Positions 22,657 to 62,814 of a DNA stretch of 64,000 nucleotides are shown in pieces. Position numbers and translations under genes: made by a program. The DNA lies in the NCBI GenBank assembly GCA_964633505.1, contig CAZWHC010000001.1:596015-660014 (forward strand), in the 5' to 3' direction. The stretch comes from an uncultured Rikenellaceae bacterium (GTDB lineage Bacteria > Bacteroidota > Bacteroidia > Bacteroidales > VadinHA17). The notes below the pieces were generated by a model. It worked only from the letters and a program-made list of their open reading frames with translations. It was not told the origin of the DNA and searched no databases. The first letter of the stretch is position 1, and each line of letters starts with the position of its first letter.

Positions 22657-23871
22657 TTATTTAAGCCTTACTACCATGAGCACCGGATTATCTGTCTCCT
22701 GAAGTCCCTCCGCCATCGTCTTAAACGATTGTTTTCTTTCCGGGGAATTTGCAGTTTTCTCATCAAACTCTTCATCTTTGATGATTTCCCTGAGTTCGAG
22801 CGGAGTGATCGGCATAAATATTTCATTGTCATTAACGGCTTTGACGGGCCAGAAATCCATGCCACCGTCCCAATCGTTAATAAACTTCGCCGGTTCGCCG
22901 GATTTATCTGTAAGAAAATTTCCGGTAAGAGTTGCTTTATCAAATAGTATATTCCTGTCGCCTTCACCTTTATAGTTCTGAGTTTTAATAAATATTGTCT
23001 TTCCAGCTTGCAGCACACTGGAAAAGAAATATTTGCCATTCTCACTCCGGAATCTCACAGCCGACTGGGGAGGTTCAGGCCTGAGTTCATCAGGCAGACG
23101 GAAAGCTCCAAGGTCAACAAAATAAACGGGTTTGATTTTATTGTCTGAAACAGTATAAACAGTATCATTATACATGCTCTTAAAGAAAGTCTGATTATTG
23201 TACTTATAAAAAGGGTGGAAGGCATGATAACCAATCATGCCGGTAATTCCCGTGGTATTAACCCATTTATAGTGATTTTTAACTGTGTTGACTGTATCTC
23301 CTTTTTCATTGGAGAGTAAATATAAATACTCCTCATTGCCTATTGCGCAGGCATAATAGGAAAGAAACTGGTCTTTATTCAAAACATGGATCCTGAAAAC
23401 GTCGGGAGGCCGCGGTACAGATTTAATGAATGTCCCGTCGAATGAAAAATACATAAGCTTACGGCTCCAGTTAGTCTGGATGATAATAAGCTTTTCATTT
23501 TCAAGGATTGAAATATAGGTGATCAGGTCTATTTCACCGGGACCTCTCCCCGGAGTCCCGATCTGGCGAACGAATTTCCCCGAATAATCAAATACAAGCA
23601 GCTGGTCGTAGTTCGCAACAAATATCAGGCTGTCGGAGAAATAATATTCGGGTCTTCCGGAAATCAGGTATTTGTCGCCGGTTTCCAACTGTATGTATTT
23701 TACCTCTGAAGCGATATCGCTCAGAAAGACTGTAGCTTTGTTTTTCAGCTCATTCTCATAATTGATCTCAAAGAATTTTTTCCCATCATTCTCCTCTTTT
23801 GATTTCGTTTTGTTATCACTGTTACAATGTGTTAACAGCAGTAATGAAACAAACAGTGCTATATTTCTCAT
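22657..23871 (-). CDS. lipoprotein, 6-bladed beta-propeller family (paralog 1 of 11)
   Basis: Lipobox 'LLTHC'. Family motifs 'VKYIQLET', 'GRGPGE' and the tail 'ETDNPVLMVVRLK'. It resembles the Bacteroidales '6-bladed beta-propeller / BF3164-type lipoprotein' group (from memory). Confidence 0.7.
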   Translation of the reverse strand: MRNIALFVSLLLLTHCNSDNKTKSKEENDGKKFFEINYENELKNKATVFLSDIASEVKYIQLETGDKYLISGRPEYYFSDSLIFVANYDQLLVFDYSGKFVRQIGTPGRGPGEIDLITYISILENEKLIIIQTNWSRKLMYFSFDGTFIKSVPRPPDVFRIHVLNKDQFLSYYACAIGNEEYLYLLSNEKGDTVNTVKNHYKWVNTTGITGMIGYHAFHPFYKYNNQTFFKSMYNDTVYTVSDNKIKPVYFVDLGAFRLPDELRPEPPQSAVRFRSENGKYFFSSVLQAGKTIFIKTQNYKGEGDRNILFDKATLTGNFLTDKSGEPAKFINDWDGGMDFWPVKAVNDNEIFMPITPLELREIIKDEEFDEKTANSPERKQSFKTMAEGLQETDNPVLMVVRLK

Positions 23872-23934
23872 TTACAGGTCAGGTTAATTATCAAATGGTG
23901 TCATTTTAATAGTTACAAGGACTTATTTCTTTTG

Positions 23935-24058
23935 TTGCAGGTTGCTGGTTGCTGGGTGCTGGGTGCTGAGAGAACTCATGTCTCACGTCCCACATCTTTT
24001 TTGCCAACTGCCAACTGCCAACTTTCCTCTTCTTCTTCCTCACTACTCACTACTCATT
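23935..24058. repeat. mosaic word repeats
   Basis: GGTTGCTGG, TGCCAACTGCCAAC and CTCACTACTCA words. The inverted counterpart lies at 33215-33240. Confidence 0.75.
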
Positions 24059-25234
24059 TCATTCTCTCAGAGTAACAGCAATCAGCAAATGATTATCATC
24101 TTCCTTTATCGTGGATCCGAGTGCTTCAAGCTCTTTCTTGCGGTCGGGGTTCAGCACCTCAGCTTTTCTGAAATCATCGCCTGAAACATGTGCTTTAAAC
24201 TTCATTGCATCGGTCCAGCCATAGATGATCCCGTTGCATACGAATTTTGGCTCAAAATTTATCCCTCCTGAAATATCATCCTTTAAAAGTTCCTTTCCGT
24301 CAAAATAGCTGATCTGGCCAGTTGTTTTATTAACTATTATCCATTTGGTAATATCCTGGTAATAATACCTTAACATAAGGTATTTTTCATTTTCAAGGAT
24401 TTCGGAAATCGACAGGAAATCGGCGGCAGGGCTTCTACCTGATCCCATAGCGGGAGCCGGTACATTCGCAAGGAAATCCGTTGTAATGCTTTTTCCGTGG
24501 GTATTCAATATCATGAATGGAATAAATTCAAACTCCCTGTTTATAGTATAGATAGTATCATTCAGAAATCCCTTGATCCTTATAGTTTCGTTATGTTTAT
24601 TGATTACATTGTCTACATTAAATCCCATTACCACTCTCGAAATCCTTTTAAATTTATAAAAATTTGGCCTTATAAAGAGAGTATCACCATCCGTATTTAT
24701 CCCGACGCACTGATATTTATTCTCACCTGTTGATGCTGTAAATGAAAGCAAAATATTATCCTGCCCCGGAAGGAAGTCGACATAACCTGGCTGCATTTTC
24801 AGATCAAGTTGCTTTTGCAGCTTAAAGCCGGTATCGGTTTCATTGTAGAAGAACAATTTGCCTCTTGTAAGCACGGCCACAAGGTTCTTTTCGGGCCTTA
24901 TGTCATAATCCGACAGGTATGTATATTCTCCAGGGCCTCTGCCCTGTTGTTCAAGCTTATAAAGAAATTTGCCTTTTTTATCGAAACAGAGGAGCTCGAG
25001 CACTGTGTTTATGTAATATTTATCATTGCCTTCTTTAAGATATCCTACAAATTTCATAAAGGCATCAGGATGCGATTCGAGAGGGATATACCGGATGTCG
25101 GTAGCAATTTCCGACAGGTTCTTAATTTCAATACCGCCGGGGGAGAGGACATCGATGGTCCTGACAGCCTGGTCGTCTTTACTTTTACAGCTGAACAAAA
25201 TCAGTGCAAGGATAAAAATAATAAGGTTTCTCAT
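24059..25234 (-). CDS. lipoprotein, 6-bladed beta-propeller family (paralog 2)
   Basis: Lipobox 'ILFSC'. Motifs 'IRYIPLES' and 'GRGPGEY'. Diverged tail 'EDDNHLLIAVTLRE'. Confidence 0.7.
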   Translation of the reverse strand: MRNLIIFILALILFSCKSKDDQAVRTIDVLSPGGIEIKNLSEIATDIRYIPLESHPDAFMKFVGYLKEGNDKYYINTVLELLCFDKKGKFLYKLEQQGRGPGEYTYLSDYDIRPEKNLVAVLTRGKLFFYNETDTGFKLQKQLDLKMQPGYVDFLPGQDNILLSFTASTGENKYQCVGINTDGDTLFIRPNFYKFKRISRVVMGFNVDNVINKHNETIRIKGFLNDTIYTINREFEFIPFMILNTHGKSITTDFLANVPAPAMGSGRSPAADFLSISEILENEKYLMLRYYYQDITKWIIVNKTTGQISYFDGKELLKDDISGGINFEPKFVCNGIIYGWTDAMKFKAHVSGDDFRKAEVLNPDRKKELEALGSTIKEDDNHLLIAVTLRE

Positions 25235-25354: not shown

Positions 25355-25560
25355 AATTGTCTTGCAAGTCATGCAAGTCGTTCAAGTCATGCAAGTCGTG
25401 CAAGTCAGGCAAGTCGTGCAAGTCTGGAACTGGTTTTATGGACCTTCAAGACCTGCATGACCTGCAAGACCTGCATGACCTGCAAGACTTTCTTCCCCTG
25501 CTCTCATCCCTTCGCTCTTCGCCCTTCGCCCTTCGCCCTGCGCCCTGCGCCCTGCGCCTT
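25355..25560. repeat. mosaic word repeats (CATGCAAGTCG x~8; GACCTGCA x5; CCCTTCGC x4; CCTGCGC x4)
   Basis: Read directly from the sequence. It overlaps the last ~41 codons of the RND ORF 25436..28582. Confidence 0.85.
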
Positions 25561-28500
25561 TATAAATATACCAGTACGCCAGCGGTATAAAGAACAGACT
25601 CACGATTGTACCCAGCGACATTCCTCCTATCAGCGCCAGCGCCATCGGACGCTGAAGCTCCGAACCCATGCCTTCGCTGAACAGTATCGGCGCCGTCGAG
25701 AACAATGAGGCCATCGCCACCATAATGATTGGCTTCAGCCTCCTGGAGCCCCCTGTATAGATAGCTTCCTTAAGCCCCAGGCCTTCGGCCCGGAGGTTGT
25801 TGATAGTATCGACCTTAAGTATTGAGTCGTTGATTATAACCCCCGACATTACTATCAGCCCGATCATGGTTATAATGTTGATGGTCCCGCCCCAGATCAG
25901 GACAAGCAGAAGCGCGCCGGCAATATCTATGGGGATCTCGAGCAATACTATAAGGGGCTGGGTAAGCGATTCAAACTGGGCAGCAAGGATGAAATAGAGC
26001 AGGAGCAGGGCTACTGCAAGTATTACAGCGAGTTCCCTGAACAGCTTCTGACCTGTAATAAGCGATCCGCTGAAGCTTACATTAAGATCCCGGTCAGGCG
26101 GAACCAACTTCCTTATCTCTCCGGTAAGCTCCGACGGCCTGTTTGTGTTGATATTGAGGTAAACTGGAACAAACTCGCCGTTCATACCTCCCCTGATAGT
26201 CTTGTAATCATGTATCCTCTGTACATTTATAAGCTCCTTTACAGGTATCATCCGGCCGTTTTTGCTTATTACAGTTTCTGTCGAAATAATATCGCCAACC
26301 TGTTTTTCCATATCCGAAAGGACTATCGGGAGGATCTCATACGACGCCCTGAGTTCGCCTATGTTATACCTGTTGAGTGATGCTTTGAGCGTATTGTAAA
26401 GAGTGGCCGGCTCTACATCATACAGCAACAGCCTGTCGGGATCGATCTTCAGAAGTATCTTGTCTTCAAGGGGAGGATTCGATATGCCGGCTCCGGGCCA
26501 CTGTTCCTTCATCCTGGAGACTATTCCGGTCATGACATCAACAGGAGGCACTTCTTTTTCCTTCATCAGGCTTACTTCAGCCACGAGAGGAGGTTCAGAA
26601 GCCGAGAAAATCTTTTCGAATATATTCTCCTGGGCGGCAATGTTTACAGTTGCTCCGGGCCATCTCCGGCCTGTCAGGTCAAGTAATTCCCTGCCAAGCT
26701 CTTCCTGTGCCCTGTAGTCCTTTGCTTTTATATATACCTTTGCCTGGGTGTACGACTGGTCATAGTCGCGGTTAAAGAGGAACTGCTGTTCCCCAATGAA
26801 TGAGTTGGTCTGTAATATCAATTTACCCATCGACGCGGTCATCATTTTTATCCTTTCCAGGTTTTCCTGAAGCTCTATATTCTCGTTCCAGTCGACTGAT
26901 ACCACGAGTTCATCCTGTTTTATTGCCGGAAACCTCTCCTTTTCAAGGGTGAAGAAAAGGAAGATCATCAGAAGGATTATCAGGCCAAATGTTATCATAA
27001 CAGCCTTCCTGTACCTGAAAAAGAAATTCATGCCTCCTTCGTATTTCTCTTCCAGGCGTTTCAGGCTGATCTTCCTTACAAAACGTGTCAGTATTCCCTC
27101 TTTCCCATTTTTATACAGAAGGTAATATATTGTGGGAAGCAGTGTTATTCCTACCAGCAGCGAGACTCCCTGGCCAATTACAATTGCAATAGCCTGGTCA
27201 TAAAACAACGCTCCCGAAATGCCGCTGAGAAAAATAAGAGGGATAAACACTGCACATGTGACAAGGACCGATGAGATCAGAGGAGTTATAATTTCGTTTG
27301 TGCCTTTAACACATGCCTCCGGAAGTGTCAGTCCCCTGTCGATCCATTGCGTTATGTTCTCAATTACAACAATTGAATTGTCGATCATCATCCCGATGCC
27401 AAGTATAAGACCGGCGAGGGAGATTATATTTATCGACAATCCGGTGAGATAAAAGAACAGCAGGCTTATGACAAGCGTTGCCGGTATGCTGAATCCGATA
27501 ATAAGCGGAGATTTCCCGTCCTTCAGGAAAAAGAACATAAGCAGGAAAGCCAGCAGTCCTCCTGCAAGCAGACTCTGCCACAGGTTCGATATCGAATAAT
27601 CGAGCAGTCTAGTCTGGTCCTGCGATATCTCAAATTCCATCTGGGGATAATCCTTCCTGAAAACATCGAGAAGCTCTGTCATCTTCGTCTCCAGCGAGGC
27701 CATCCTTGCCGTTGATTCCTTTATTATAGCAAGAGCTATGGCTCTTTTACCATTTGAATAATAAACACCCCGCGGCTGTTCCTGTCTGATCCCCACCTCG
27801 GCAATATCTTTCATCTGAATTATCCGGCTCCCTGTCCTGATATAAATATCCCTCACATCATTCAGGTCCTTCAGATATGAGCTGAACTCGAGATTATAAA
27901 GGTATTTGCCGTCTTTTACCAGGATGCTGCCGATATTTATATTGTTGATCTTTACTGCGCCGGTAATGTCATCATCGGTTAGACCGAGGCTGTTCATCTT
28001 TTGCCTGTCGGGACTTATAAATATCTCCCTTTTTATCTGTCCGGTTATGTCAGCCATCCCAACCTCGGGAAGCTGTTCTATCCTTTTCTTGATGACTGTC
28101 TCGGCAAATTCGCTCAGTTCGATGAATTTCTCATCGCCGGCCATGGTGTCGGCCAGCGTGATGTTAAGCATGAACACCGGTATATCCGTGGCACTTGCCT
28201 TTATTATCCTTGGTCTTTCAAGGTCGTTGGGGAGGTAGTTCATCGCTCCGTCGACTTTTTCGTTTACCTCCATGAATGCAAGGTTGATGTCGTTCCCGAA
28301 TTTGAACGAAAGTCTTATGAGTGCGCTTCCGTTGCGTGATTCCGATTCAATGCGGTCAATGCCCTGTACCTGCAGGAGGTTTCTGCGGAGTATCGATACC
28401 ACGCTGTTCTCAAGCTCCCTGGCGCTTACATCAGGCCGCGAAACAGCAACTGTTATCTCCGGAATATCTATGTCGGGCATCAGCGATACCGGCAACCGGT

Positions 28501-28582
28501 TCGAGGCCACTATTCCCAGCATCAGCAATGCCAGAAAGGTCATTATGACTGCTACGGGCCTTGTTATAAGAAATTTTACCAC
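25436..28582 (-). CDS. RND efflux transporter permease (AcrB/MdtC-like)
   Basis: 1048 aa with 12-TM RND topology. N-terminus 'FLITRPVAVIM'. The apparent GTG start lies inside a TTACCAC word. The C-terminal ~41 aa are encoded by word repeats. Confidence 0.85.
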   Translation of the reverse strand: MVKFLITRPVAVIMTFLALLMLGIVASNRLPVSLMPDIDIPEITVAVSRPDVSARELENSVVSILRRNLLQVQGIDRIESESRNGSALIRLSFKFGNDINLAFMEVNEKVDGAMNYLPNDLERPRIIKASATDIPVFMLNITLADTMAGDEKFIELSEFAETVIKKRIEQLPEVGMADITGQIKREIFISPDRQKMNSLGLTDDDITGAVKINNINIGSILVKDGKYLYNLEFSSYLKDLNDVRDIYIRTGSRIIQMKDIAEVGIRQEQPRGVYYSNGKRAIALAIIKESTARMASLETKMTELLDVFRKDYPQMEFEISQDQTRLLDYSISNLWQSLLAGGLLAFLLMFFFLKDGKSPLIIGFSIPATLVISLLFFYLTGLSINIISLAGLILGIGMMIDNSIVVIENITQWIDRGLTLPEACVKGTNEIITPLISSVLVTCAVFIPLIFLSGISGALFYDQAIAIVIGQGVSLLVGITLLPTIYYLLYKNGKEGILTRFVRKISLKRLEEKYEGGMNFFFRYRKAVMITFGLIILLMIFLFFTLEKERFPAIKQDELVVSVDWNENIELQENLERIKMMTASMGKLILQTNSFIGEQQFLFNRDYDQSYTQAKVYIKAKDYRAQEELGRELLDLTGRRWPGATVNIAAQENIFEKIFSASEPPLVAEVSLMKEKEVPPVDVMTGIVSRMKEQWPGAGISNPPLEDKILLKIDPDRLLLYDVEPATLYNTLKASLNRYNIGELRASYEILPIVLSDMEKQVGDIISTETVISKNGRMIPVKELINVQRIHDYKTIRGGMNGEFVPVYLNINTNRPSELTGEIRKLVPPDRDLNVSFSGSLITGQKLFRELAVILAVALLLLYFILAAQFESLTQPLIVLLEIPIDIAGALLLVLIWGGTINIITMIGLIVMSGVIINDSILKVDTINNLRAEGLGLKEAIYTGGSRRLKPIIMVAMASLFSTAPILFSEGMGSELQRPMALALIGGMSLGTIVSLFFIPLAYWYIYKGAGRRAQGEGRRAKSEGMRAGEESLAGHAGLAGHAGLEGP

Positions 28583-28602
28583 TTTCTATTTTTTTAATTT
28601 TT

Positions 28603-28687
28603 AACCACGGAGTCACACGGAGTAAGTACGGAGTTTCACGGAGTTAAAACAGTGGAACTCCGTTTTTACTCCGTGTAACTCCGTGGT
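28603..28687. repeat. 85-bp near-perfect palindrome of CACGGAG words
   Basis: 'aaccacggagtcacacggagtaagtacggagtttcacggag..ctccgtttttactccgtgtaactccgtggtt'. It spans the junction of the two RND permease genes. Confidence 0.85.
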
Positions 28688-31600
28688 TTATATTTTTCTT
28701 CATCATCATCGGTTGCAACACCACCAGCCCCACAAAACTGGCCACCAGCCCTGAGATGGTCCCTGCCGCCAGTGCAAACCAGAACCTTTCATCCTTGCCA
28801 GTCAGAAGAAAGGGGATAAGGCCCACGATTGTCGAGAGCTTTGTGAGGATTATAGGGATTATCTTGCCGTTGAAGGCCTTAAGGTAGGCTATCCTTTCGG
28901 GGAGAGCTGGACGCTTACGCCTGATGCTGTTGAAGTCGTTAAGTATATAAAGCGTTGCATTTACAACGATGCCGCACAGGAGTATAAGTGCAGCAAACAC
29001 CCCTTCGTCGGCCGGAATGTTGAAAATATGGAATGTGAGAAAAACTCCCGTGAATGAGAAGGGGATCAGGCTTATAACAACAAAAGGCTGTCTGAATGAC
29101 TCGAGCAGGATGGCACAGATGAAATATATTATCACAATAACAAGGAAAATAAGCAGATAATTGGTTTTCTGCTGTTCCCACGAGTACCTGTAAGTATCGC
29201 TTTGCGCAGAATAGCCAAGAGGCAGGAGGGAATTTGTCTCATCGATGTTCCTGTCGAGTATCAGTTGCCCCAGCTCATAATTGCCTATGAAATCGTATCC
29301 TACTGTGATGACATATTGCTGATCCTCGCGCCTGATGGTGTTGTCTGAAACTTCCCTCGTGATTTTGGAAAAGTCCTTGAGTTTAATGAACTGTCCCTGT
29401 GCAGTTTCAACAGGCTCATTTCTGATGCTCCAGTAATCATAAAGTTCCGACTGCTGCGATTTAATTACGACAGGCGCGGTGATCCCGTTAATATAGGCTG
29501 ACATTGAAGAAGCCGTGCTCCTCGAATATATTCCGGTCTCATTAAACGCCCGGGCAACGCCTGAGTTGCTGCCTGCAAGATAGAATTTATCCATCTCGAG
29601 CCTGTTCCTGTAAACCTTGCGGTTGTTCATTCCGGTAAAAAATCCCCCGTAATTTTCTCCAAGGAGATATACCTCCTTTATCCTTCCCTTGCCGCTTTCG
29701 ACAAGCCTGTCTCTCAAAGCTTCACAGCAGGAGTAAAGCTCATCATAATTATATCCCTTCATCAAAATTCTGTATGTTGTCCGGATATAATCACTGTAAA
29801 CCTCGTTGCTGAAATATTTCCCGACACCGTAAACGGAAGCATGGTAGCTTCCGATTCCGTTCATATAATCCTCAATCTTTATCTTCAGGATATACGGAAA
29901 GATTGTGAAGTCGTGTTCGGGTCTGAACGTTATGGAAACCGTTGCTTCGTTTTCACTGAAAATGCTTGTGGTGAACATGTCTATCTCAGGATATCCTGCA
30001 AGCATATTTTCGAGTCCAATGCAGGTATTGTTCATATCCTCAGTCGTAAGTCCCTCCTCGCTTAACCCTATGTTAACTGTAAGTCTTGTTCGTTGTACCT
30101 CATCGGAACTTCCATACCAGTAGAACCGGCTGCTCTTCACTTTTTCGTTGAAAAGCCTGAATGTTCCTCCCAGTACTTTATTAACTACAGGCTTTATGTC
30201 CTGAACATATTTTTTGTTTCCAAGCGTCTTGTTGTACAGTTTCTGGTATTTATCAGGTTCCTTTTTCGACTGCCGGTCCGTGGTATCTTTCGGGAGTGAA
30301 TCGGGAAGGTAGAAAACAGGAAGGCCGAAAAGCAATATTGCTGCAATTATCAGGATCGCTTTCCTCCTAATTATGAAATCAATAGCTTTCAGGTATTTTT
30401 GAGAGAAGAGTGCAACCCTTCTCTTCCTTTTTATCACCAGGGCATTGAATTTCGGGACCAGTTGAATCTTTTCGAGAAGGGATGGTATGAAAAAAAGGGC
30501 TACCGCAAGGGAGACAGAGAGGTTTATTATTACAACACCTGCAAAATCGGAGAGGGATATTCTTGATGCTTCATCGAGGAAGAAGATGACTGCAAGAGCG
30601 CCTATCGTTGTGAGCGTCGCCGCGAGGAGTGAAATGCCGACTTTCCTGTCCTTCCTGAACCTTATATGGTCGGTCATAACGATTGTATTGTTTATTATTA
30701 TGCCGAACGAGACCGTGATGCCCGCCAGAGAGTAAAGATGTATCTCTAGCCGGAACAGGTAATAAAAAATAAAGGCTATCAGGATATTGGCGACCAGGCT
30801 GATAGAAATTATAAGGAGATATCTGAATTCACGGCTTATGACAAGTACGAAAAGCAGAAGAAGGATCACTGAAAGCACAGCCCTGAAAATGTTCTTCGAG
30901 ATCTCTTCCCTCAGATATGTCGTGTTGTCGACAGATGTTCTTATGCTGTAACCCGGAGGGAGTTCCTTTTTAATGTTCTCGATAATCTCCTTTACCTTTC
31001 CGGCAACTCTTATGTTATTTACATTTTTCCCGGCATTGACATTAATGTTTATTGTATTGAGGCCGTTTATCCTGTAATAGCTCTGGGGGCGTCTGTCTTT
31101 CAGCCTGACAGATGCGATTTCGGCAAGATGGATAATGCGGCCGCCCGCTTTTGCAACAGGGATTTCCTCCCAACGGAATTCCTCCCTGTCGTTGCCGGAA
31201 AGGGTAAGATATGTTCTTTTGCCCGGGCCGGCGGTCTGAAGTTCCATTGCACCTCCAAGTTCCCTTTCGAGAAGGTAGTTGCCGATAGCAGCGCTTATAA
31301 GGGATGGATCTATGCCAAGCGACGAAAGCTTCTGCTGATCATAAACAAGTTCCCACTCGCGGGGTGTTGCGCCATATACATTTACACTGTAGACACCTTC
31401 GGCAACAGCTATGGCCGGCTTGATGACTTCGTCGGCAAGGGTGTAAATATACGACGGGCTTGCATTCCCGTTAAGCTGAAAGGTGAGTATGGGCGATCCC
31501 GAAGTGTTTGACGGCATGTTCATTGCGATTTCGGGATATGAAACCCTGCCGGGAAGTCTCCCGCGCGACTGCCGCAAAAGAGATGCAACTTCGAAACGTT

Positions 31601-34721: not shown

Positions 34722-34734
34722 AGTCTTTGTCTTA

Positions 34735-49676: not shown

Positions 49677-49692
49677 TCCTTTTTTTGAACGC

Positions 49693-50735: not shown

Positions 50736-50739
50736 ATAT

Positions 50740-53566: not shown

Positions 53567-54868
53567 TTATTTATATTTTCCCTTACTTTTAAAGGTGACA
53601 AACATTAATACCGGGTTATCCAGAGGATTTATGCCGGAAGCAATATCTTCAAGCTTTTTTCTGCCGGCCGGGTTCCTGGCCCTGGCTTTCCTGAAATCAT
53701 CGCCGGCCACATGATCTTTTAAATCCATGGCTTCAACAGCCATCACCATAACGGAATCATTTACCATTTTCTGAGGGAAAAATCTTGGTCCGCAATCAAT
53801 ATCATTAAATATGCCAGTAGTATTTAACTTATTATCAGTGCTTTCTGGTTTAAAGTAACTAAATTCCCCTGAATCCTTTTGGAATAACCCAAGCATATAT
53901 GTTGTTGTATACCACGACTCTCCACCAGGAGTTTCTTTTGGAGTGAGTTGTCTGGCCGGAAAACGGTTCCCAAAAAAGCATTTAATTAACAGGATATCAT
54001 CCGTTTCAAAGATATCTTCAACAGAGATATAATTCCAGAGTCCTGAACCTCCCAATCTCTCTGCTCTTACGGAAAGAGGCATTTTATATTCACCCAAATT
54101 AAAGGCATATTTTGGAATTAAGCTATCCTCCTCACTAATTGTGAATAAAGTATCATTAAAGTATTGCTTGAAGTGCATTTTCCCATTATAACTATACATG
54201 TAGGATTTGCGTTCAAAAATCGAACCCGGACCATTTCTATTAAAAATGTCATAATTTTTCCAGGCAAACAGAATATGCCCCATTTTATTGATGACAATTG
54301 CCTTGTTTGGTTCCTTCCCGCTGGAGTTTGGGACCGGTACAATAAAAAGAGAATCAAATACATTTGCCCAATTTCTATACCCGTCATCATTATTTCCTGA
54401 AATCCTGAAAATGTCAGAATACTTCCTGATGAAATTACCCTTAAAATCGTACTCCGACAAATCACGTAAAGCACCCTGAACGTAAATTGATTGATGATCT
54501 GAAAAACCTGCTTTTATGCAAAAAAGATACTCCCCCGGACCATTGCCTTTTCGTCCGATAATACTTATAAGTTTCCCATTATTGTTATATAGCAGGCAGG
54601 TATTCAGATTATATATCAGAATCAGGCTGTCCCGAAAATCAAAGTTACTGTATGAGCTGAAAGAAATATAATCCTTTGATTGTAAAGGGACGTACGATAT
54701 ATCATCTGCAAACTGACTTAACTTATATTCTGCCAGATTATCAATATTTGCCCCGATGTCAATAAGAATGCTCTTTTCCTCACCGGATTGTCTATGATTG
54801 CACCCACAAAAGAGCAATGATAATATTATTTCGGGTTTTATGAATCTGTAAGTCATCCGGTAAATCAA
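53567..54868 (-). CDS. lipoprotein, 6-bladed beta-propeller family (paralog 7)
   Basis: Lipobox 'LFCGC'. Motifs 'ISYVPLQS' and 'GNGPGEY' with tail 'LDNPVLMFVTFK'. Confidence 0.7.
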   Translation of the reverse strand: MIYRMTYRFIKPEIILSLLFCGCNHRQSGEEKSILIDIGANIDNLAEYKLSQFADDISYVPLQSKDYISFSSYSNFDFRDSLILIYNLNTCLLYNNNGKLISIIGRKGNGPGEYLFCIKAGFSDHQSIYVQGALRDLSEYDFKGNFIRKYSDIFRISGNNDDGYRNWANVFDSLFIVPVPNSSGKEPNKAIVINKMGHILFAWKNYDIFNRNGPGSIFERKSYMYSYNGKMHFKQYFNDTLFTISEEDSLIPKYAFNLGEYKMPLSVRAERLGGSGLWNYISVEDIFETDDILLIKCFFGNRFPARQLTPKETPGGESWYTTTYMLGLFQKDSGEFSYFKPESTDNKLNTTGIFNDIDCGPRFFPQKMVNDSVMVMAVEAMDLKDHVAGDDFRKARARNPAGRKKLEDIASGINPLDNPVLMFVTFKSKGKYK

Positions 54869-54897: not shown

Positions 54898-54966
54898 TTA
54901 ATTCAGCATTTCAGGCCAGTCTTTCGCCTTGATCTGCAATTTATTAAGTTTTTTTATAACAACCAT
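54898..54966 (-). pseudogene. decayed GG-leader precursor remnant
   Basis: The minus strand reads 'MVVIKKLNKLQIKAKDWPEMLN*'. 'KKLNKLQI' is identical to the start of the precursor 1 leader, with ATA at the position of the original ATG. There is no GG motif and no core. Confidence 0.55.
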
Positions 54967-55185
54967 TTTTTTAGTCAGCAAATCATTCATGATTCCCCTT
55001 ATTTATTGCATACAGGAGCTCCAAAAGGGTCGAGTCACATCCAGCTCAGTACATTCAAATAGATGACGTCATCCCGGATACGGTTCCTGCCAATTCGGGA
55101 TCTTTTCCCGAACCACCGCATATTCGAAAAGCAGATTCTGCCAGATGCAGACCTTCAAGCCTTTACGCCCTAACGCTCATCATTA

Positions 55186-56373
55186 TTATTCCTTGAACCT
55201 TACCAGCACCAAAACCGGATTATCCGTTTCTTCAAGACTGTCAGCCAGCCTGACAAGCTCCGCCTTACCGCCGGGATCACGGGGATTACTGTTCCTGAAA
55301 GCCTCCGAGTTGACCCAGTTCTTAAGGTTTATGGTCTCAACCCACGAAACAAGTGTATTGTCATCCCAGGTACCCTTTGGCCAGATACAGGGGCCGCCGT
55401 CAAGATCATTCAGAAGCTCCTTCTCCGGATCGAAAAATGCCCTGAAATCACCATCCTTCGACCCAATGAAGGCAAGGCCTTCCATCTTGCCGTTACGCGG
55501 ACTGATAAACTCATAATAGACCTTATCCCCAAATTCAAACAGGTTAGCCGGATGGAGAAAGCTCTTCATGATTATATCGACAGTACCGGTAGTTCTCGCT
55601 TCAGGTGTAAGGCGAAGGTTTCCGACATCGATAACCATGTAAGGCTCAAAATCCCCGTTCTTCCAGGAGTATACGGTATCGCAATAGATCTCTTTCTTCC
55701 TTAGCTGATTATCAAAACTGTAAAAAAGATTTTCCCCTGTATAAAAGACACCGGGATCAGTCCTGGTCCAGGGATATTTATTTGGGAAATTCCTTATTAT
55801 GGTACCCATTGTATCCACAAGGATGTAACTGTTCTCAATAGCACCCATATGGTTCGGATAGTAACACAGTATCCCTTCACTTGTGAGTCTGAAATTCATG
55901 GCAGACGACAGAGGAGTTCTGAAAGTCCTTACAAGATTGCCTTCCGGCGAGAAAACAAAGAACTTCTGCTGAAATCCGTCGGCCAGGTAAATTGATCCGT
56001 CATTCTTGTCGATGTCAACATCATGGGCGACCGTAAATTCGTCAGGACCCCTTCCGGCTTTTCCTATTTTGGTAACGAAAGTACCATCGTGACGGAACAT
56101 AAAGATATTGGCAAAATACACGGTCAGGAAATAGTCTTTCCCAACCAGGATTTTGTTTATTCTGGATATAACACTCTGCTCTGTGGTCCCAAGAGGAATG
56201 TATTCAATATCAACTGCGCCCAGATCCGACAGGTTCAGGGTTCCCTGCGAGGGCAACTCCTTCAGGTCAAAGGCAATAAGCCTGTCTTCCCTGACCGGAC
56301 CGGAACTTTTGCAGCTTAGAAGGATCGCCGGTAATAAAAAGATCCAGATATGAATTTTAAGGAATGTTTTCAT
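55186..56373 (-). CDS. lipoprotein, 6-bladed beta-propeller family (paralog 8)
   Basis: Lipobox 'LLSC'. Motifs 'IEYIPLGT' and 'GRGPDEF' with tail 'ETDNPVLVLVRFKE'. Confidence 0.7.
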   Translation of the reverse strand: MKTFLKIHIWIFLLPAILLSCKSSGPVREDRLIAFDLKELPSQGTLNLSDLGAVDIEYIPLGTTEQSVISRINKILVGKDYFLTVYFANIFMFRHDGTFVTKIGKAGRGPDEFTVAHDVDIDKNDGSIYLADGFQQKFFVFSPEGNLVRTFRTPLSSAMNFRLTSEGILCYYPNHMGAIENSYILVDTMGTIIRNFPNKYPWTRTDPGVFYTGENLFYSFDNQLRKKEIYCDTVYSWKNGDFEPYMVIDVGNLRLTPEARTTGTVDIIMKSFLHPANLFEFGDKVYYEFISPRNGKMEGLAFIGSKDGDFRAFFDPEKELLNDLDGGPCIWPKGTWDDNTLVSWVETINLKNWVNSEAFRNSNPRDPGGKAELVRLADSLEETDNPVLVLVRFKE

Positions 56374-56947: not shown

Positions 56948-58129
56948 TTACTTTTTCAGACTTACCAGGACAAGAACCGGATTATCCGTTTCTTTCAGGC
57001 TGTTTGCAAGTCTTTCAAGCTCCTGCTTCTTTTCGGGGTAAAGAGGTTTTGATTTCCTGAAAACCTCAGATGCAACATGGTTTTTAAGCTGTAGGGCATC
57101 AATCCAGGCAACAAGAGTATTATTATCTTTTATTGTTTTTGGCCAGATATTGGGACCTCCATTCAAATCATTAATAATTCCCTTTTTCGGATTAATTACA
57201 AAAATCAGATTTTGAATTCTTGACCCAATCATTCCAAACAGATTGCCATTCATAAGAAACTCATAATAAATGTAATCACCAAATTCAAATAAGTTCAATT
57301 GTTGAAAGTAGTTTTCCGCTATTTTGTCTGGACTTAAATTAGAACGTACCTCCGGAGTAATCAGTCTTTTTCCCTGATAAATTACAGCATGTGGATTAAA
57401 TGATTGTTTTTCAAAACTATATATGGTGTCAGAGGAAATTTCCTTTTTGTACAACCGATTATTATACTTATAAAATATATTTTCATTAATAAATACTAAA
57501 TAACGTCCTTTGGGTGCTTTAAACGGATACTTATTTGAGTAATTTTTAAGAATGTGACCTGCAGTGTCTAACAAATTATAGCTAGAGGTAATATTTGCAA
57601 ATGAGTTTATGCTGTAGCACAAAATTCCATCACCTGTAATTCTAAAGTTCGTTGTATTTAACGGGCATGGGAAAGTTCTAATAAACTTACCATTTTCATT
57701 AAAGACAAAGAATTTACGCTGCCAGCCTGAGACCAGGTAAATTCTTCCGTTCTTATCATCAATATCAAAATCATGAAGTACCGTAAACTCATGCGGACCT
57801 CTGCCTGGTTTCCCTATTTGTGTCTTGAAATGTCCATTATTGTCGAATTTTAGAAGTGTTGTATAATCCTGAATAAGAATATAGTTGTTACCAAATCTGA
57901 TACCAGTAATTCTTTGAAGTGGATTTTTATCACTTGTTTCTAACGGAAGAATTTCAATATCCCTGAATCCTAATTCAGAAAGTTTTATATCAACAACTTT
58001 TAGTTGCTCTTTCATGTCGAAAGCCGTCAAATTCTTAGTATTCTGACAATCTGTTCTTTGACTCACAATCAGATATAATACTATTAACAATATGATTTCT
58101 ATTTTACTCATTTGTATTCTTGATTTCAT
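56948..58129 (-). CDS. secreted 6-bladed beta-propeller family protein (paralog 9)
   Basis: Motifs 'IEILPLET' and 'GRGPHEF' with tail 'ETDNPVLVLVSLKK'. Its stop is 4 bp before the C39 fragment start. Confidence 0.7.
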   Translation of the reverse strand: MKSRIQMSKIEIILLIVLYLIVSQRTDCQNTKNLTAFDMKEQLKVVDIKLSELGFRDIEILPLETSDKNPLQRITGIRFGNNYILIQDYTTLLKFDNNGHFKTQIGKPGRGPHEFTVLHDFDIDDKNGRIYLVSGWQRKFFVFNENGKFIRTFPCPLNTTNFRITGDGILCYSINSFANITSSYNLLDTAGHILKNYSNKYPFKAPKGRYLVFINENIFYKYNNRLYKKEISSDTIYSFEKQSFNPHAVIYQGKRLITPEVRSNLSPDKIAENYFQQLNLFEFGDYIYYEFLMNGNLFGMIGSRIQNLIFVINPKKGIINDLNGGPNIWPKTIKDNNTLVAWIDALQLKNHVASEVFRKSKPLYPEKKQELERLANSLKETDNPVLVLVSLKK

Positions 58130-58206: not shown

Positions 58207-59367
58207 TTATTTCAGATTTACAAGAACCAAAACCGGATTATCAGTTTCTTTGAGACTATTTGCCAACTTTTCAAGCTTTTTCTTCTTTTCGGGGTATTTG
58301 GGTTCGGATTTTTTGAAATTTACGCCGGAAACACACGCTTTCAGCTTATATGGGTCAATTAAATCAATTAAGTATTCTCTGCCATGATCTGCTATAAAGG
58401 TTTTTGGAAAGAATTTCAATCCAGCATCAAGGTCATTCCAGATACATCCTGTATCATCAGAACTCCAGTATGATAAAAATGTATTTTGAAGATTTTTATC
58501 TATAATAACTAAACCATTTTTCTCTTTATAAAATAAATATTGAATCATCAGATATTTTTTTGATTCAAAAATCTGATTGATCATAAAGTATTTATGCAAT
58601 TGTTTAATTGGATTATCAATATATGTTTTTGGCAATCTGAATTCTCCTTGTTTAAACAGGAAGTTGGGTCTTAAGGTAAAATCAGGGTAAAAAGTATATA
58701 CAGTATCAATAAAAGGATTCCAGAAGTTTAATTTGTCGTCAAATAAATAGGTTCCGCCACCATTCAGAAAATTGCTCTTGAATGCAGGCAACGTTCTTTC
58801 TTTCTTTTTGATCAGGTTGCCAAGTGTATCAAGGATCATCCATTCAAATTTATTATCATCATCATACTGAAGTTGATAGGATAGGAAAAGTCTGGAGTTA
58901 AATACTTCAATTTTATCCAGTGAACCACCATACGCTTTTAGGGAAAATTCATTTCGGAAAGTGCCTGTAATATTAAAAACCTTTATGCCATTGGGTTCAT
59001 TTGAAACATATATTGTTCCTGTCCTTTTATCTATTGCAAACGACCTGCCATTAAAATATTCTCCCGGACCTCTGCCTTTTTTCCCAATCTTCATTAAGAA
59101 TTGCCCGTTTATATCAAATTCAAGGATCCCTTCATGCACATCATAAATAAATATTTTATTATTACAGATTTTAGGATTATAATTACTATTAATTTGTGAA
59201 AGAGGAAAACTGCATTTGAGGGGAATATATACTATGTCATCAGCAATGTCAGATAACATTATCTCATTTTCTAAAAGAGAAGAAGGATCTAATTCAAAAA
59301 GTATTTTGTCACTATGCCGGCAGGATATCAAATAAAATAATAGAAAAACGAGCAAATTCTTCTTCAT
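58207..59367 (-). CDS. lipoprotein, 6-bladed beta-propeller family (paralog 10)
   Basis: Lipobox 'LISC'. Motifs 'IVYIPLKC' and 'GRGPGEY' with tail 'ETDNPVLVLVNLK'. Confidence 0.7.
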   Translation of the reverse strand: MKKNLLVFLLFYLISCRHSDKILFELDPSSLLENEIMLSDIADDIVYIPLKCSFPLSQINSNYNPKICNNKIFIYDVHEGILEFDINGQFLMKIGKKGRGPGEYFNGRSFAIDKRTGTIYVSNEPNGIKVFNITGTFRNEFSLKAYGGSLDKIEVFNSRLFLSYQLQYDDDNKFEWMILDTLGNLIKKKERTLPAFKSNFLNGGGTYLFDDKLNFWNPFIDTVYTFYPDFTLRPNFLFKQGEFRLPKTYIDNPIKQLHKYFMINQIFESKKYLMIQYLFYKEKNGLVIIDKNLQNTFLSYWSSDDTGCIWNDLDAGLKFFPKTFIADHGREYLIDLIDPYKLKACVSGVNFKKSEPKYPEKKKKLEKLANSLKETDNPVLVLVNLK

Positions 59368-59800: not shown

Positions 59801-60110
59801 TTTTTCACAGATCAAAATTGTCCTGATATTAAAGTTCAACAATTATATTGATATGATTGCAGGAAAAATCCGGGAATAAGTTGACAGAAGTTGCCAGATA
59901 TTGTCAGAAGCTGCCAGAAGTTGACAGAAGTGGACACCGTCCTCTTTTTGAGCGATGATTTCAGGCGCTTTGGGATTTTAAGATCCGCTCAGACTTTGCA
60001 AGCCGTGGCCTTCTTTGGAATCCGAAGCTTTTGTGAAGGATTCGGCATAGGCTTAGGGCAGAGGGGAGGAGAGAAAGATCTGGCCCATGACGGATGAGCT
60101 TTCAGCCCCC
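59801..60110. repeat. duplicate of the 49541-49700 region plus mosaic word repeats
   Basis: About 165 bp are roughly 85% identical to the region upstream of the LanC-like operon, including the 10-bp array and a remnant of the HTH gene 3' end. GAATCCGAAGC/GAAGGATTC words follow. Confidence 0.8.
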
Positions 60111-60250: not shown

Positions 60251-61402
60251 TTGCGATTACGTTCCTTTATTCCAGGTATAATGATCAGAAGAGTACTTGA
60301 GAAAGATGTTGTGTCCAGAATAGCCACAGGTAAGGCTATCATAATTACCGGCGCTCGTCAGACCGGTAAAACAACCCTTTTATCAGGGCTCCTGAAAGAA
60401 AGGGAAGGAACATTATGGCTCGATGCTGATGAACCAGATGTACGGGCCTTGTTCGAGAATCCAACTTCCGACAGACTAAAAGCGGTTTTTGCCGGGAAGA
60501 AGATTCTGATCATAGATGAAGCCCAGCGGATAGAAAATATCGGGATGCGTCTTAAACTGATTACAGATCATCTGAAAGATATTCAGTTGGTTGCAACAGG
60601 GTCATCTTCCTTCGAACTGTCAAACAAGATCAATGAGCCTCTTACGGGCCGGAAATGGGAATTTCAATTGTTCCCGATTTCATTTGAGGAAATGGTAAAT
60701 CATACGAGCCTGCTTGAAGAAATCAGGTTAATGCCGCACCGTTTAATTTTTGGATATTATCCTGAAATTGTCACTAACGCGGGATCAGAGAAAGATATTC
60801 TTAAACAGCTCACAGACAGTTACCTGTACAAAGACATACTAATGTGGGAAAGAATAAACAAACCTGACAAGCTGGTCAGGTTGTTACAGTCACTTGCTTT
60901 ACAGATAGGTAACGAAGTATCATACAATGAACTGGCAAATAACCTTGGGATTGATAACCAGACTGTTGAAAAGTACATACAGTTACTTGAACAGACTTTT
61001 GTGATTTTCAGACTGGGCGCATTTAGCAGAAATCTCCGCAAAGAACTGAAACGCTCAAGAAAAATATATTTTTATGATAATGGAATCCGTAATTCACTCA
61101 TTGCTAACTTTAGTCCTCCGGAACTTCGCGGTGATACCGGAGCATTGTGGGAGAATTTTTTCATCTCGGAACGAATAAAATTTCTGAAGAATAATAATAT
61201 CTGGGCGAATACTTACTTCTGGAGAACTCAGGACCAACAGGAAATTGACTTTATCGAAGAACGGGACGGAATGCTCCACGCATTGGAGATCAAATGGAAC
61301 CCAAAATCAAAGGCGAGGCTTTCCAGGACATTTTCCTCGGAATACAAAACATCATTTGATGTTATTACTCCCGATAATTTTGACAGGTTTCTAACATTAT
61401 GA
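60251..61402 (+). CDS. AAA-type ATPase with DUF4143-like C-terminal domain
   Basis: Walker A 'GARQTGKTT'. Walker B 'ILIIDEAQR'. The likely start is the internal 'MIRRVLEKD' at 60281. Confidence 0.7.
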   Translation: MRLRSFIPGIMIRRVLEKDVVSRIATGKAIIITGARQTGKTTLLSGLLKEREGTLWLDADEPDVRALFENPTSDRLKAVFAGKKILIIDEAQRIENIGMRLKLITDHLKDIQLVATGSSSFELSNKINEPLTGRKWEFQLFPISFEEMVNHTSLLEEIRLMPHRLIFGYYPEIVTNAGSEKDILKQLTDSYLYKDILMWERINKPDKLVRLLQSLALQIGNEVSYNELANNLGIDNQTVEKYIQLLEQTFVIFRLGAFSRNLRKELKRSRKIYFYDNGIRNSLIANFSPPELRGDTGALWENFFISERIKFLKNNNIWANTYFWRTQDQQEIDFIEERDGMLHALEIKWNPKSKARLSRTFSSEYKTSFDVITPDNFDRFLTL

Positions 61403-61491
61403 CTGAAAACAGGGTGTTGTGTTCATAGCCGTGTTTTGAAGTATAATGTGTTTTACAAAAGTTGCACAAACCAAAAGTACCTTCGGCTCTG

Positions 61492-62589
61492 TTATTTCAT
61501 CAGAACAATAACCGGATTGTCCTCCTCCTTCAGTTCGGAAACTAAATTCTTAAGTTTATTATCTGCAATTTCATCTTTATATTTCTTCAGGCTGCCGGCC
61601 TGTAAAAATGTTACCATAGTGCCATTTTCATCACTCCACCTGGGCCAGATCAGATATTGATCTTTATTTATTGCATAACTCTTTCCGGTCTTTTTATTTA
61701 TTACATATCTTTCACTTTCTCCCTTATAGAATATTGTAACAAAAACATAACTGCCATTTTCACAGACATCTTCAAGATACCCGTAACCTGAAGACTTGTC
61801 CTGGTACTTGCCAATATTCTCAAGCAAGTCAAGAGGGAACTTTGCACTGCCAAAGTCAAAATAATAACTGACTGAAAGGGTTTTATCACGGGGATCAAAC
61901 CTGTAGATCGTATCATTGAACTGCTGGTGAAAAATCAATCCATTATCGAGCTTCTGAAAATTTTTGATGTCATAAACCTGGAAAAAATCCTGACTGTTAT
62001 ATGAAACATTGTTTTTAAGACATGTGGAGGAGTCATTTTCATCTATAATTTTCAGCATGCATGGCTCCTTACCGGAATAGTTCAGAGGATAAACAACATA
62101 CATGTTATTGATTACTTCAAGACGTTTGCTGAAACCGTCAATATCTTTAGTACCAATATACCTGCCCGAGAAATCATAAATGTTGATTTTTTTAAGATCA
62201 CAGATATAAACCTGTCCCGGAGCCTCATCAACGGCAACATCAACAATAATACCGTATTCTGCCGGGCCCCTGCCTTTGGAGCCTATCTTCCTGATGTATT
62301 TCCCGTTTGTTTCAAACTGGTAAAACGAATCCCCTGATAAAACAAAAATGAAATCCGATGTCAGAATGACTTTATGAACACCGGCGATAAGACAACCGGG
62401 ATTGGTCTCCAACGGAATATATGTAAACTGTTCCTTAAACGAGAAAAGCTCTTTTGAACTTCTTAATGTAGTAATGTCATAACAGATCTGTTCAGATTTC
62501 AAATGTGAGGTACATGAAAGAAATTCTGATGCCAGCAGCAACAAAATGCAATTTGCAATCAGAAGATGTTTGAAAGAACAGAAATCCAT
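61492..62589 (-). CDS. lipoprotein, 6-bladed beta-propeller family (paralog 11)
   Basis: The start is taken at 'MDFCSFKHLLIANCILLLLASEFLSC' (lipobox). The track ORF extends to 62679. Motifs 'FTYIPLET' and 'GRGPAEY' with tail 'EEDNPVIVLMK'. Confidence 0.65.
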   Translation of the reverse strand: MDFCSFKHLLIANCILLLLASEFLSCTSHLKSEQICYDITTLRSSKELFSFKEQFTYIPLETNPGCLIAGVHKVILTSDFIFVLSGDSFYQFETNGKYIRKIGSKGRGPAEYGIIVDVAVDEAPGQVYICDLKKINIYDFSGRYIGTKDIDGFSKRLEVINNMYVVYPLNYSGKEPCMLKIIDENDSSTCLKNNVSYNSQDFFQVYDIKNFQKLDNGLIFHQQFNDTIYRFDPRDKTLSVSYYFDFGSAKFPLDLLENIGKYQDKSSGYGYLEDVCENGSYVFVTIFYKGESERYVINKKTGKSYAINKDQYLIWPRWSDENGTMVTFLQAGSLKKYKDEIADNKLKNLVSELKEEDNPVIVLMK

Positions 62590-62814
62590 GATCAGAATTT
62601 TCTCTTTGGCTGCCTTTTCCGGAATGAATAAATATCCCGGATTTGAATGCCTGCGAATTTTTCCGTTAAGCGGGTTCATTATTTTTTGTTTTCGAACTAT
62701 TAAAAGTAGTCTTTTTGGTACAAATTCAAAACCGGCACGGGTACAGGCGATCCCGAGTTGCTTCGCTTTCGGGACTACTTATCCTCCTTTCGTCGGATAC
62801 GTAGCTTGCACGTG

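Follow-up and report, generated by a model that had tools for sequence, protein, structure and literature searches.

The region described here belongs to an uncultured Rikenellaceae bacterium (GenBank assembly GCA_964633505.1, contig CAZWHC010000001.1), of which a stretch of 64,000 nucleotides at positions 596,015 to 660,014 was analyzed. This whole stretch is called the window below, and coordinates are counted from its first base. Between 22657 and 62679, the window carries 11 intact open reading frames (ORFs), all on the minus strand and each 386-433 aa long, which encode beta-propeller proteins of the DUF5128 family (P1 to P11; Table 1). Three precursors of cysteine-rich peptides with a double-glycine (GG) leader lie among them, together with one decayed leader. 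The peptide-propeller cassettes sit between a block of LanC-like, glycosyltransferase (GT2 and GT4) and VKOR-thioredoxin genes and a block encoding a C39 ATP-binding cassette (ABC) exporter, a HlyD protein and a resistance-nodulation-division (RND) module. The DUF5128 family and its fold were already known, as were arrays of bacteriocin-plus-immunity cassettes; what seems to be new is that DUF5128 propellers appear, from the comparison of many loci, to be near-obligate cognate partners of secreted Cys-rich peptides.

The propeller copies

All 11 copies score above the gathering cutoff of PF17170 (DUF5128, '6-bladed beta-propeller'), with 58-119 bits and E values of 1e-15 to 3e-34 against a whole-protein cutoff of 22.9 bits, and all 11 also match PF16288 (DUF4934). 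A first-pass annotation made from the letters alone had already listed the 11 paralogs, and each of its ORFs is present on the minus strand where it had been placed. The same annotation knew of no function for the family. That part stands, in that no published function was found, but the family does have a name, Pfam DUF5128, and a structure, PDB entry 4RAA. An NCBIfam scan of the propellers gave only sub-threshold NHL/ScyF and LIC_12708 matches. Library scans found no homology to described immunity families, returning only DUF5128, DUF4934, TolB_like and a weak ScyF NHL match. The family is large: at E <= 1e-30, the propeller profile matches 3,836 clusters formed at 50% identity.

The copies are strongly diverged, as had been claimed, with pairwise identities of 19-32%; the exception is the subgroup of P3, P5, P8 and P9, at 43-52%. 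Few columns of the 11-copy alignment are invariant, namely a G..GRGPxE loop, a D-T turn and a C-terminal N-P, and the invariant residues (G, P, E, D, T and N) correspond to consensus positions of the NHL repeat. Conserved polar residues are E114, D234, E282, D327 and N389 in P5 numbering. No His, Cys, Ser or Tyr is invariant, and no His is near-invariant, in the 11 paralogs or in a 74-sequence alignment; a conserved catalytic constellation, which the first-pass annotation had named as a sign of an unrelated enzymatic role, is not found at the level of sequence. The shared motifs that it described are present but looser than stated, with YIQLET in P1, EILPLET in P9, GPGEI or GPGET in P1, P3 and P4, and DNH in P2.

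A signal sequence with a lipobox had been attributed to all 11 copies and is plausible in eight. P6 has a hydrophobic anchor only, without a lipobox Cys, and P3 and P9 carry E or D at position -1 before the Cys. The true start of P11 is probably an internal Met ahead of the lipobox EFLSC. Among related propellers, 136 of 235 passed a crude lipobox test, and just 10 of those 136 have at least two acidic residues at positions +2 to +5. Acidic residues after the lipobox Cys are the surface-export signal of Bacteroidetes lipoproteins, and their scarcity suggests that the propellers probably face the periplasm rather than the surface.

Peptide precursors and the cassette

The three precursors share the leader MKKLNKLQIN..L(R/K)GG, followed by cores with 6-8 Cys. 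A hidden Markov model (HMM) of the leader, run over the 64-kb window, finds these three precursors and one weak remnant at 54901-55002 (E 0.024), and nothing else. The remnant is the decayed leader that had been recognized upstream of P7, and it shares 79% DNA identity with the leader of peptide 1. Across loci, 147 distinct cores were collected, with a median length of 45 aa and 57 clusters at 40% identity. They are rich in Cys, Gly and Tyr; 79% have 6 or 8 Cys, and in 70% a Tyr directly follows the GG site.

Read from the sequence, the cassette opens with a conserved inverted-repeat element, which is followed by the leader, the hypervariable core with its many Cys, a strong hairpin and lastly the DUF5128 propeller gene. 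The precursor-hairpin-propeller arrangement of the first-pass annotation is thus upheld, with stems of 9-12 bp and folding z scores of -2.7 to -5.2. The hairpin is general, the mean folding energy past the peptide stop being -16.5 kcal/mol across loci versus -8.9 kcal/mol for shuffled sequence. The upstream element is about 96 nt long and consists of a GACCTTTC-N5-9-GAAAGG inverted repeat followed by ..GCAAAGATAA... It occurs in 64 of 146 fetched loci, ~127-133 nt 5' of the peptide ATG. It matches no Rfam family, and a sigma-70 promoter scan did no better than shuffles, the sigma-70 model being unsuited to Bacteroidota. The element is probably a promoter/operator or 5'-UTR structure common to all cassettes.

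Against TIGR04149 (cutoff 25 bits), peptide 2 scores 29.9 bits, peptide 1 18.4 and peptide 3 15.5. The reading that this family would bring with it, a ribosomally synthesized and posttranslationally modified peptide (RiPP) modified by a radical SAM enzyme, was rejected because the radical SAM maturase is absent from the conserved locus: no radical SAM gene is found among the scanned locus genes or in the conserved gene order across loci.

Pairing of peptides with propellers

In the window, the distance from peptide stop to propeller start is 88 bp for peptide 3 and P5 and 95 bp for peptide 2 and P4, and the decayed leader lies 29 bp from P7; these gaps had been given correctly. Peptide 1 is separated from P3 by an insertion sequence (IS). 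A related locus, L125, matches the window at 94-95% identity, its alignment covering 42531-39924 and continuing directly at 38462-36870, which identifies 38463-39923 (1461 bp) as an insertion. The IS ends in 13-bp terminal inverted repeats and is flanked by a target duplication of ~5 bp. As L125 lacks the IS, peptide 1 once stood directly ahead of the propeller at 37178-38362, as had been proposed for the window with the 1461-bp element removed.

Related loci (L001, L005 and so on) are fetched metagenomic contigs, and they were approached from both sides of the pair. The propeller-side search used the four-member subgroup A2 as its query, the alignment of all 11 copies being too diverged. It gave 23 loci with same-strand propeller arrays, in metagenome-assembled genomes of Bacteroidales, Rikenellaceae and Prolixibacteraceae, and 17 of these contain GG peptides, nearly all directly 5' of a propeller. 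For the reverse test, a degenerate DNA pattern that described only the leader was run against metagenome contigs and returned 122 GG peptides, 109 of them with enough downstream sequence to score. A propeller follows on the same strand within 800 bp in 105 of the 109 (96%), at a median distance of 107 bp. The association with GG-leader peptides in other genomes, proposed as a check by the first-pass annotation, is thereby borne out. The four exceptions are a divergent propeller-like ORF, a reverse-transcriptase-like ORF inserted ahead of the propeller, a locus with a propeller relic only and one with no propeller.

The type of peptide tracks the type of propeller, with reciprocal best pairs. 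In L125, L005, L060, L023, L013 and L017, orthologs of P3 (58-97% identity) stand directly behind peptide-1-type peptides. P4 forms a reciprocal best pair with a propeller of L021, and its relatives at 45-96% identity all stand behind peptide-2-type cores. The arrangement is also seen with a second peptide class. In Bacteroides fragilis, the gene for BF0058, the protein of structure 4RAA, has an 83-aa NVEALA (PF14055) protein, Cys-rich in its C-terminal part, encoded 73 bp upstream on the same strand, and the next DUF5128 gene of that locus follows an NVEALA-like 121-aa Cys-rich protein. The peptide-DUF5128 pairing thus extends past GG leaders.

Orphan propellers and cassette exchange

Propellers without an upstream peptide are common, accounting for 97 of 241 scorable full-length propellers (~40%) and for 36 of 61 in the propeller-selected loci (~59%). 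The relation is asymmetric: peptides almost never occur without a propeller, and propellers often occur without a peptide. Orphan orthologs have dN/dS values of 0.10-0.23, compared with 0.09-0.27 for linked ones, which indicates that the orphans are maintained. Orthologs of P8, for example, are orphans at 78-81% identity with dN/dS of 0.13-0.15, and an orphan ortholog of P11 at 69% identity has a value of 0.19. All 11 propellers of the window are intact, including P7 with its decayed leader.

Linked and orphan states interconvert. L029 and L070 carry propellers of the P5 type (88-89% identity) without a peptide. In the other direction, P2, P6, P7, P9 and P10, all orphans in the window, have peptide-linked relatives elsewhere, at 33-34% identity for P2 (its closest relatives, in L005 and L059), 39% for P6 (its closest relatives), 55% for P9 and 49-56% for P10.

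Closely related strains (90-94% nucleotide identity) can hold different whole cassettes in the same slot. The first cassette of L001 is ~91% identical to that of the window at the nucleotide level and the second slot holds another peptide and another propeller, which indicates that cassettes are exchanged as units between conserved flanks. The last 120-240 nt at the 3' end of several propeller genes are 71-78% identical in DNA despite diverged gene bodies. Relics of the flanking genes are found inside the array: immediately ahead of the peptide-2 cassette, 42368-42667 matches 44635-44934 at the 3' end of the VKOR-thioredoxin gene with 83% identity, and 56643-56942 matches 36869-37168 at the 5' end of the exporter gene with 79% identity. 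The layout of an orphan-immunity island, which the first-pass annotation had suggested, is supported by this combination of asymmetry, orphans under purifying selection, interconverting types and recombination relics.

Fold and structural relatives

An AlphaFold2 model of P5, built on the 74-sequence alignment, has a pLDDT of 91.9 and a pTM of 0.88 and contains 24 strands arranged as six four-stranded blades. The last blade holds both the N-terminal 'YIPLET' strand and the C-terminal 'DNPVLVLV' strand, and a helical insert spans residues 351-383. The top Foldseek match of the model is 4RAA (E 2e-17, TM 0.65-0.73), the B. fragilis 'putative exported protein' BF0058. The propeller profile matches the same protein over its full length (E 3e-24), including the C-terminal DN..L..V..K strand, making it the best match by structure and by sequence. 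DUF4221 proteins and eukaryotic NHL domains come next, and virginiamycin B (Vgb) lyase (Foldseek E 7e-6), BamB and PAL (E 0.02) are distant. Profile A1 matches the NHL domains of Thin, TRIM2, TRIM3, TRIM71 and Brat with E values of 3.5e-21 to 2e-8, mainly over positions 75-200 (blades 1-2); the other blades are highly diverged.

NHL propellers (TRIM2/3/71, Brat and PAL) are likewise six-bladed and carry the GxGPGE(Y/F)..D(I/V)D repeat motif. In the DUF5128 copies, however, the motif is clear in only one or two blades, and they add the helical insert, closure of the ring by N- and C-terminal strands and bacterial lipoprotein targeting. Nothing points to RNA binding or lyase activity in the DUF5128 copies. 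Because the conserved residues are those of the NHL consensus and the ring-closing strands, with no conserved His, the sequence favors a scaffold for binding over an enzyme.

Conserved putative maturation and export genes

Many loci share one gene order: LanC-like, GT2, GT4, C39-like/VKOR/thioredoxin, one or more peptide-propeller cassettes, more propellers, C39-ABC, HlyD, RND membrane fusion protein and two RND permeases. The gene order of the window is exactly this one. The run from LanC-like through GT2 and GT4 to VKOR/thioredoxin recurs in more than 12 loci, and the RND module downstream of ABC-HlyD is also present in L006, L009, L021, L100, L101 and L130. The C39-like domain of the oxidoreductase (44701-46326) lacks the catalytic Cys motif, which suggests that it binds the leader rather than cleaving it; the C39-ABC exporter retains the catalytic DCGPSC motif. 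Sequence searches of the PDB with the GT2-like and LanC-like proteins returned nothing informative.

Table 1. Features of the propeller island in window coordinates (MFP, membrane fusion protein)
Feature	Position	Strand	Evidence
Propeller P1, orphan, 404 aa	22657-23871	-	PF17170 E 1e-32; no upstream leader by HMM
Propeller P2, orphan, 391 aa, lipobox ILFSC	24059-25234	-	PF17170 E 9e-31
RND efflux module: MFP 31913-32968, permeases 28644-31916 and 25436-28582	25436-32968	-	Gene order
HlyD-family MFP	33426-34721	-	PF13437 E 1e-12
C39 peptidase-domain ABC exporter (PCAT)	34803-37169	-	Peptidase_C39, ABC_membrane, ABC_tran; TIGR01193 394 bits
Propeller P3, putative cognate of peptide 1	37178-38362	-	PF17170
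IS element between peptide 1 and P3, DUF772/DDE transposase 38478-39815	38463-39923	-	Pfam; empty site in L125
Hairpin after peptide 1, 12-bp stem	39995-40025	-	Folding z -5.2
Peptide 1 precursor, 69 aa, GG leader, 6-Cys core	40097-40306	-	Leader HMM E 4e-17
Conserved element upstream of peptide 1, inverted repeat GACCTTTC..GAAAGG	40348-40443	-	Repeats D13, D14
Propeller P4, putative cognate of peptide 2	40581-41867	-	PF17170 E 1e-15
Hairpin after peptide 2, 12-bp stem then T run	41915-41943	-	Folding z -2.7
Peptide 2 precursor, 65 aa, GG leader, 7-Cys core	41963-42160	-	Leader HMM E 2e-10
Conserved element upstream of peptide 2	42198-42293	-	Repeat D14, 85% identical to peptide-1 copy
Relic of VKOR-thioredoxin gene 3' end	42434-42757	-	Repeat D4; weak Thioredoxin_4
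Propeller P5, putative cognate of peptide 3, copy used for modelling	42912-44111	-	PF17170
Hairpin after peptide 3, 9-bp stem	44165-44186	-	Folding z -4.1
Peptide 3 precursor, 75 aa, GG leader, 8-Cys core	44200-44427	-	Leader HMM E 1e-15
Conserved element upstream of peptide 3	44486-44539	-	Repeat D13
C39-like domain fused to VKOR and thioredoxin, thiol oxidoreductase	44701-46326	-	PF07884, PF13462, weak PF03412
GT4 glycosyltransferase, TIGR04157-like	46304-47605	-	288 bits, below cutoff 400
GT2-like protein	47595-48398	-	Marginal match, 27.1 bits vs cutoff 27.3
LanC-like protein	48410-49510	-	Conserved block upstream of cassettes
Propeller P6, orphan, no lipobox Cys	52302-53510	-	PF17170 E 4e-29
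Propeller P7, intact, 3' of decayed leader	53567-54868	-	PF17170 E 2e-16
Decayed leader remnant (..VVIKKLNKLQIKAKDW..)	54898-54990	-	Leader HMM E 0.024; repeat D11
Propeller P8, orphan	55186-56373	-	PF17170 E 9e-32
Relic of ABC exporter gene 5' end (C39 domain), directly after P9	56587-56943	-	Repeat D5; NCBIfam C39
Propeller P9, orphan	56948-58129	-	PF17170 E 2e-32
Propeller P10, orphan	58207-59367	-	PF17170 E 6e-20
Propeller P11, orphan	61492-62679	-	PF17170 E 3e-34

The exporter gene also contains an in-frame low-complexity insert of ~55 aa (RRAQSTEQRAQSTERRAK..) at 36690-36875, built of short repeats of the GCTCTG/GCTCAGG type that are found between genes as well (34765-34801 and 50120-50140). 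Similar repeats encode the C-terminal tail of an RND permease (25436-25560), and the homology of the exporter 5' relic stops exactly at the start of the insert. A TonB paralog (50740-51564, TonB_C E 9e-18) lies directly upstream of the LanC-like/GT block, with the same neighborhood in L028, and in L030 a TonB-like ORF is inserted after a peptide.

Mobile elements land repeatedly in the cassette arrays. Homologs of the window IS transposase occur in L059 and L007, and in L114 a reverse-transcriptase-like ORF lies between peptide and propeller, ~430-930 nt past the peptide stop. Two AAA-ATPase genes, at 60251-61402 (plus strand; AAA_14 and DUF4143) and 62815-63966 (minus strand), flank orphan P11, and this break in the propeller array may mark a later insertion. 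Repeats of other kinds are also plentiful. Intergenic families with heptamer tandem repeats (GAGTAGT.., TGAACCT..) flank the island blocks at 33102-33344, 50190-50732, 51864-52044 and 59989-60059, and these families may be elements resembling repetitive extragenic palindromes (REP) or miniature inverted-repeat transposable elements (MITE), or else recombination sites. Among them is a perfect 76-nt direct repeat at 22382-22457 and 22533-22608, 151 bp apart. A 152-nt repeat occurs in two 87% identical copies, one just 5' of the LanC-like gene (49567-49718) and one 5' of P10 (59830-59981), each holding a small ORF (MSTSVNFWQLL..). On the low-coordinate side, the island is bordered by a glycyl-radical enzyme gene (19654-22029), pyruvate formate-lyase-like by sequence. 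A tRNA gene lies at 14220-14306, and the remainder of the first 1-19 kb is ordinary chromosomal housekeeping.

A proposed role for the propellers

The best explanation of the region is that it would be the variable part of a conserved Bacteroidales locus for making and exporting disulfide-rich GG-leader peptides, similar to bacteroidetocins and glycocins. The precursor would be cut behind its GG site, the C39 ABC transporter would carry out the export, the VKOR-thioredoxin protein would oxidize the peptide cysteines, and the peptide might also be glycosylated. The hairpin would pass only part of transcription on to the propeller gene. The propeller itself would be anchored outside the cytoplasm, usually as a lipoprotein and probably facing the periplasm, and its variable surfaces would bind and neutralize the cognate mature peptide, making it an immunity protein. 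Orphan propellers would protect against the peptides of neighbors. New cassettes would enter by recombination at conserved flanks, displacing older copies; one flank would be formed by the thioredoxin 3' end, upstream element and leader, and the opposite one by the 3' tail of the propeller gene together with the 5' end of the ABC gene.

That the propeller is a cognate peptide-binding lipoprotein acting in immunity is given a probability of about 0.45, and immunity is only the leading option among the roles that a cognate partner could have. What favors an immunity-type binder is that peptides depend strictly on propellers, that orphans are maintained, that whole cassettes are swapped and that recombination has left relics, along with the layout of precursor, hairpin and partner. 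Several points weigh against it. Binding, protection and the antibacterial activity of the cores are all putative, and the cores are mostly anionic, with a median net charge of -4 (n = 147), which is unusual for membrane-active bacteriocins and antimicrobial peptides. At ~400 aa, the propeller is unusually large for an immunity protein against a peptide toxin, and a 2012 survey knew of no beta-propeller immunity proteins (PMC3482391). Variability is not clearly confined to one face of the propeller in a mapping based on secondary structure. The correlation of core identity with propeller identity (Mantel test, p <= 6e-4) can be explained by linkage alone and is not used as evidence of binding. 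The conserved RND pump could itself give self-protection, and a receptor or recapture model would also be consistent with both the asymmetry and the orphans.

One competing account would make the propeller a dedicated periplasmic chaperone or escort that holds its peptide during disulfide formation and a two-step export, by ABC transporter into the periplasm and by RND pump out of it, and is needed for production rather than protection. The near one-to-one pairing of peptide to propeller would fit, a VKOR-thioredoxin protein acting in the periplasm and a conserved RND module suggest a periplasmic intermediate, and most propellers lack the acidic surface-export signal. A chaperone without a client should decay, however, and orphans are frequent, intact and under purifying selection with no adjacent peptide; in addition, bacteroidetocin has been produced in Escherichia coli without such a protein (PMC6671954). 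This account is possible but doubtful. Less plausible still is that the propeller is an enzyme acting on the peptide, either in maturation, as a PAL-like lyase or cyclase, or in resistance by cleavage, as with the Vgb lyase propeller. The distant relationship of the fold to PAL and Vgb lyase and the few conserved polar residues are what can be said for it. The lack of any invariant His, Cys, Ser or Tyr and the assignment of the conserved residues to the NHL consensus (GxGPGE, D-x / D-N turns) and the ring-closing strands speak against it, as does the fact that one enzyme per precursor is atypical of RiPP loci. Diversification to 20% identity in step with each substrate would not be needed either, and an enzymatic role is very unlikely. 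Least credible of all is adjacency with no functional coupling, in which a general cell-envelope family has expanded beside peptide loci: the size of the family and its many orphan copies are compatible with this, yet same-strand neighbors at ~100 bp in 96% of cases from unrelated samples, the joint swapping of peptide and propeller and the same arrangement with NVEALA peptides make it very improbable.

A cognate receptor would account for the polymorphism of both partners, the swapping of cassettes as units and the excess of receptors over ligands. Here the peptide would be a secreted signal, a mark for kin recognition or a public good (a ligand used in scavenging, for example) that the propeller recaptures or senses, and orphans would be receptors for the peptides of other strains. 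The anionic cores and the TonB paralog adjoining the locus in the window and in L028 would be in keeping with this role, and beta-propeller lipoproteins of Bacteroides reportedly capture ligands for TonB-dependent uptake. It is quite unlikely all the same, as the conserved locus has no TonB-dependent transporter, sensor kinase or other signaling domain, most propellers lack the surface-export signal and the export and maturation genes are the set known from bacteriocins. A broader form of the idea would see DUF5128 as a very large set of receptors, each fitting a hypervariable disulfide-knotted peptide, GG-leader or NVEALA, as a lock fits its key; they would serve in kin recognition, signaling or public-good recapture instead of pairing as toxin and immunity, and orphans would then be receptors for eavesdropping or piracy. 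This too is unlikely.

Significance

DUF5128 is a large Bacteroidota family with a crystal structure and members in human-gut Bacteroides, and the pairing with peptides gives it a concrete role to probe. If the immunity function is true, the propellers would add a new structural class to the known bacteriocin immunity proteins. They would also explain how Bacteroidales protect themselves from peptide toxins, a group in which bacteroidetocin producers lack immunity. In that case, the combination of peptide and propeller would be a genomic marker with which hundreds of new disulfide-rich peptides could be mined and the pattern of resistance between members of anaerobic communities predicted.

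Comparison with known systems

The nearest parallel by family is the BF0058 (4RAA) locus of gut Bacteroides, where a DUF5128 protein is likewise encoded behind a Cys-rich peptide. The B. fragilis partner has an N-terminal hydrophobic segment and the NVEALA motif in place of the GG leader, and, unlike in the window locus, no C39 exporter was seen in the 8-kb flank. No paper naming DUF5128 or NVEALA was found in the literature library searched, and no published function for either family. The propeller is also not mentioned in papers on Bacteroidales RiPP mining and bacteroidetocins, and a lone mention in a B. fragilis transcriptome gives no useful information.

Bacteroidetocin (class IIf) loci resemble the window in their GG-leader Cys peptide, C39 peptidase ABC exporter, thiol oxidoreductase and Bacteroidetes host. 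They encode a protein with five transmembrane segments, no propeller and no immunity protein, and the bacteria that make the toxin are sensitive to it themselves (Coyne et al. 2019, PMC6671954). The peptide, oxidoreductase, exporter and transmembrane protein are enough for active toxin, and production in E. coli needs no propeller-like protein (PMC6671954), which implies that these relatives can mature and export their peptide with no propeller. A five-transmembrane gene of the bacteroidetocin type is absent from 33426-51564 of the window, where every ORF of at least 150 aa is assigned elsewhere and none encodes a small polytopic membrane protein. Compared with bacteroidetocin loci, the window locus adds GT2, GT4, LanC-like and RND genes and multiple cassettes, and its cores have 6-8 Cys and are anionic.

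Other features recall systems of more distant bacteria. Glycocin loci, such as that of sublancin (sunA-sunT-bdbA-sunS-bdbB with sunI), also pair a disulfide peptide that has a GG leader with a C39 ABC exporter, and they too encode a glycosyltransferase, dedicated thiol-disulfide oxidoreductases and an immunity gene of their own, the putative role of the propeller here. They differ in being Gram-positive, with a single cassette and a small membrane immunity protein, and glycosylation is only putative in the present case. The bacteriocin/immunity region (BIR) of the pneumococcal blp locus, with its orphan immunity genes, and the CDI/Rhs systems, with their displaced orphan modules, are alike in organization: variable cassettes of toxin and partner lie between conserved export genes, orphans accumulate and relics of flank genes mark recombination. 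The partner in the window is, however, a beta-propeller lipoprotein of ~400 aa instead of a small membrane or cytoplasmic protein, and toxicity is putative. NisI and SpaI, lipoprotein immunity proteins of the LanI type from Gram-positive bacteria, have an unrelated fold, and LanI genes are not known to form hypervariable arrays. Yet the proposed mode of action would be the same, with an extracytoplasmic lipoprotein protecting the cell by binding its cognate peptide.

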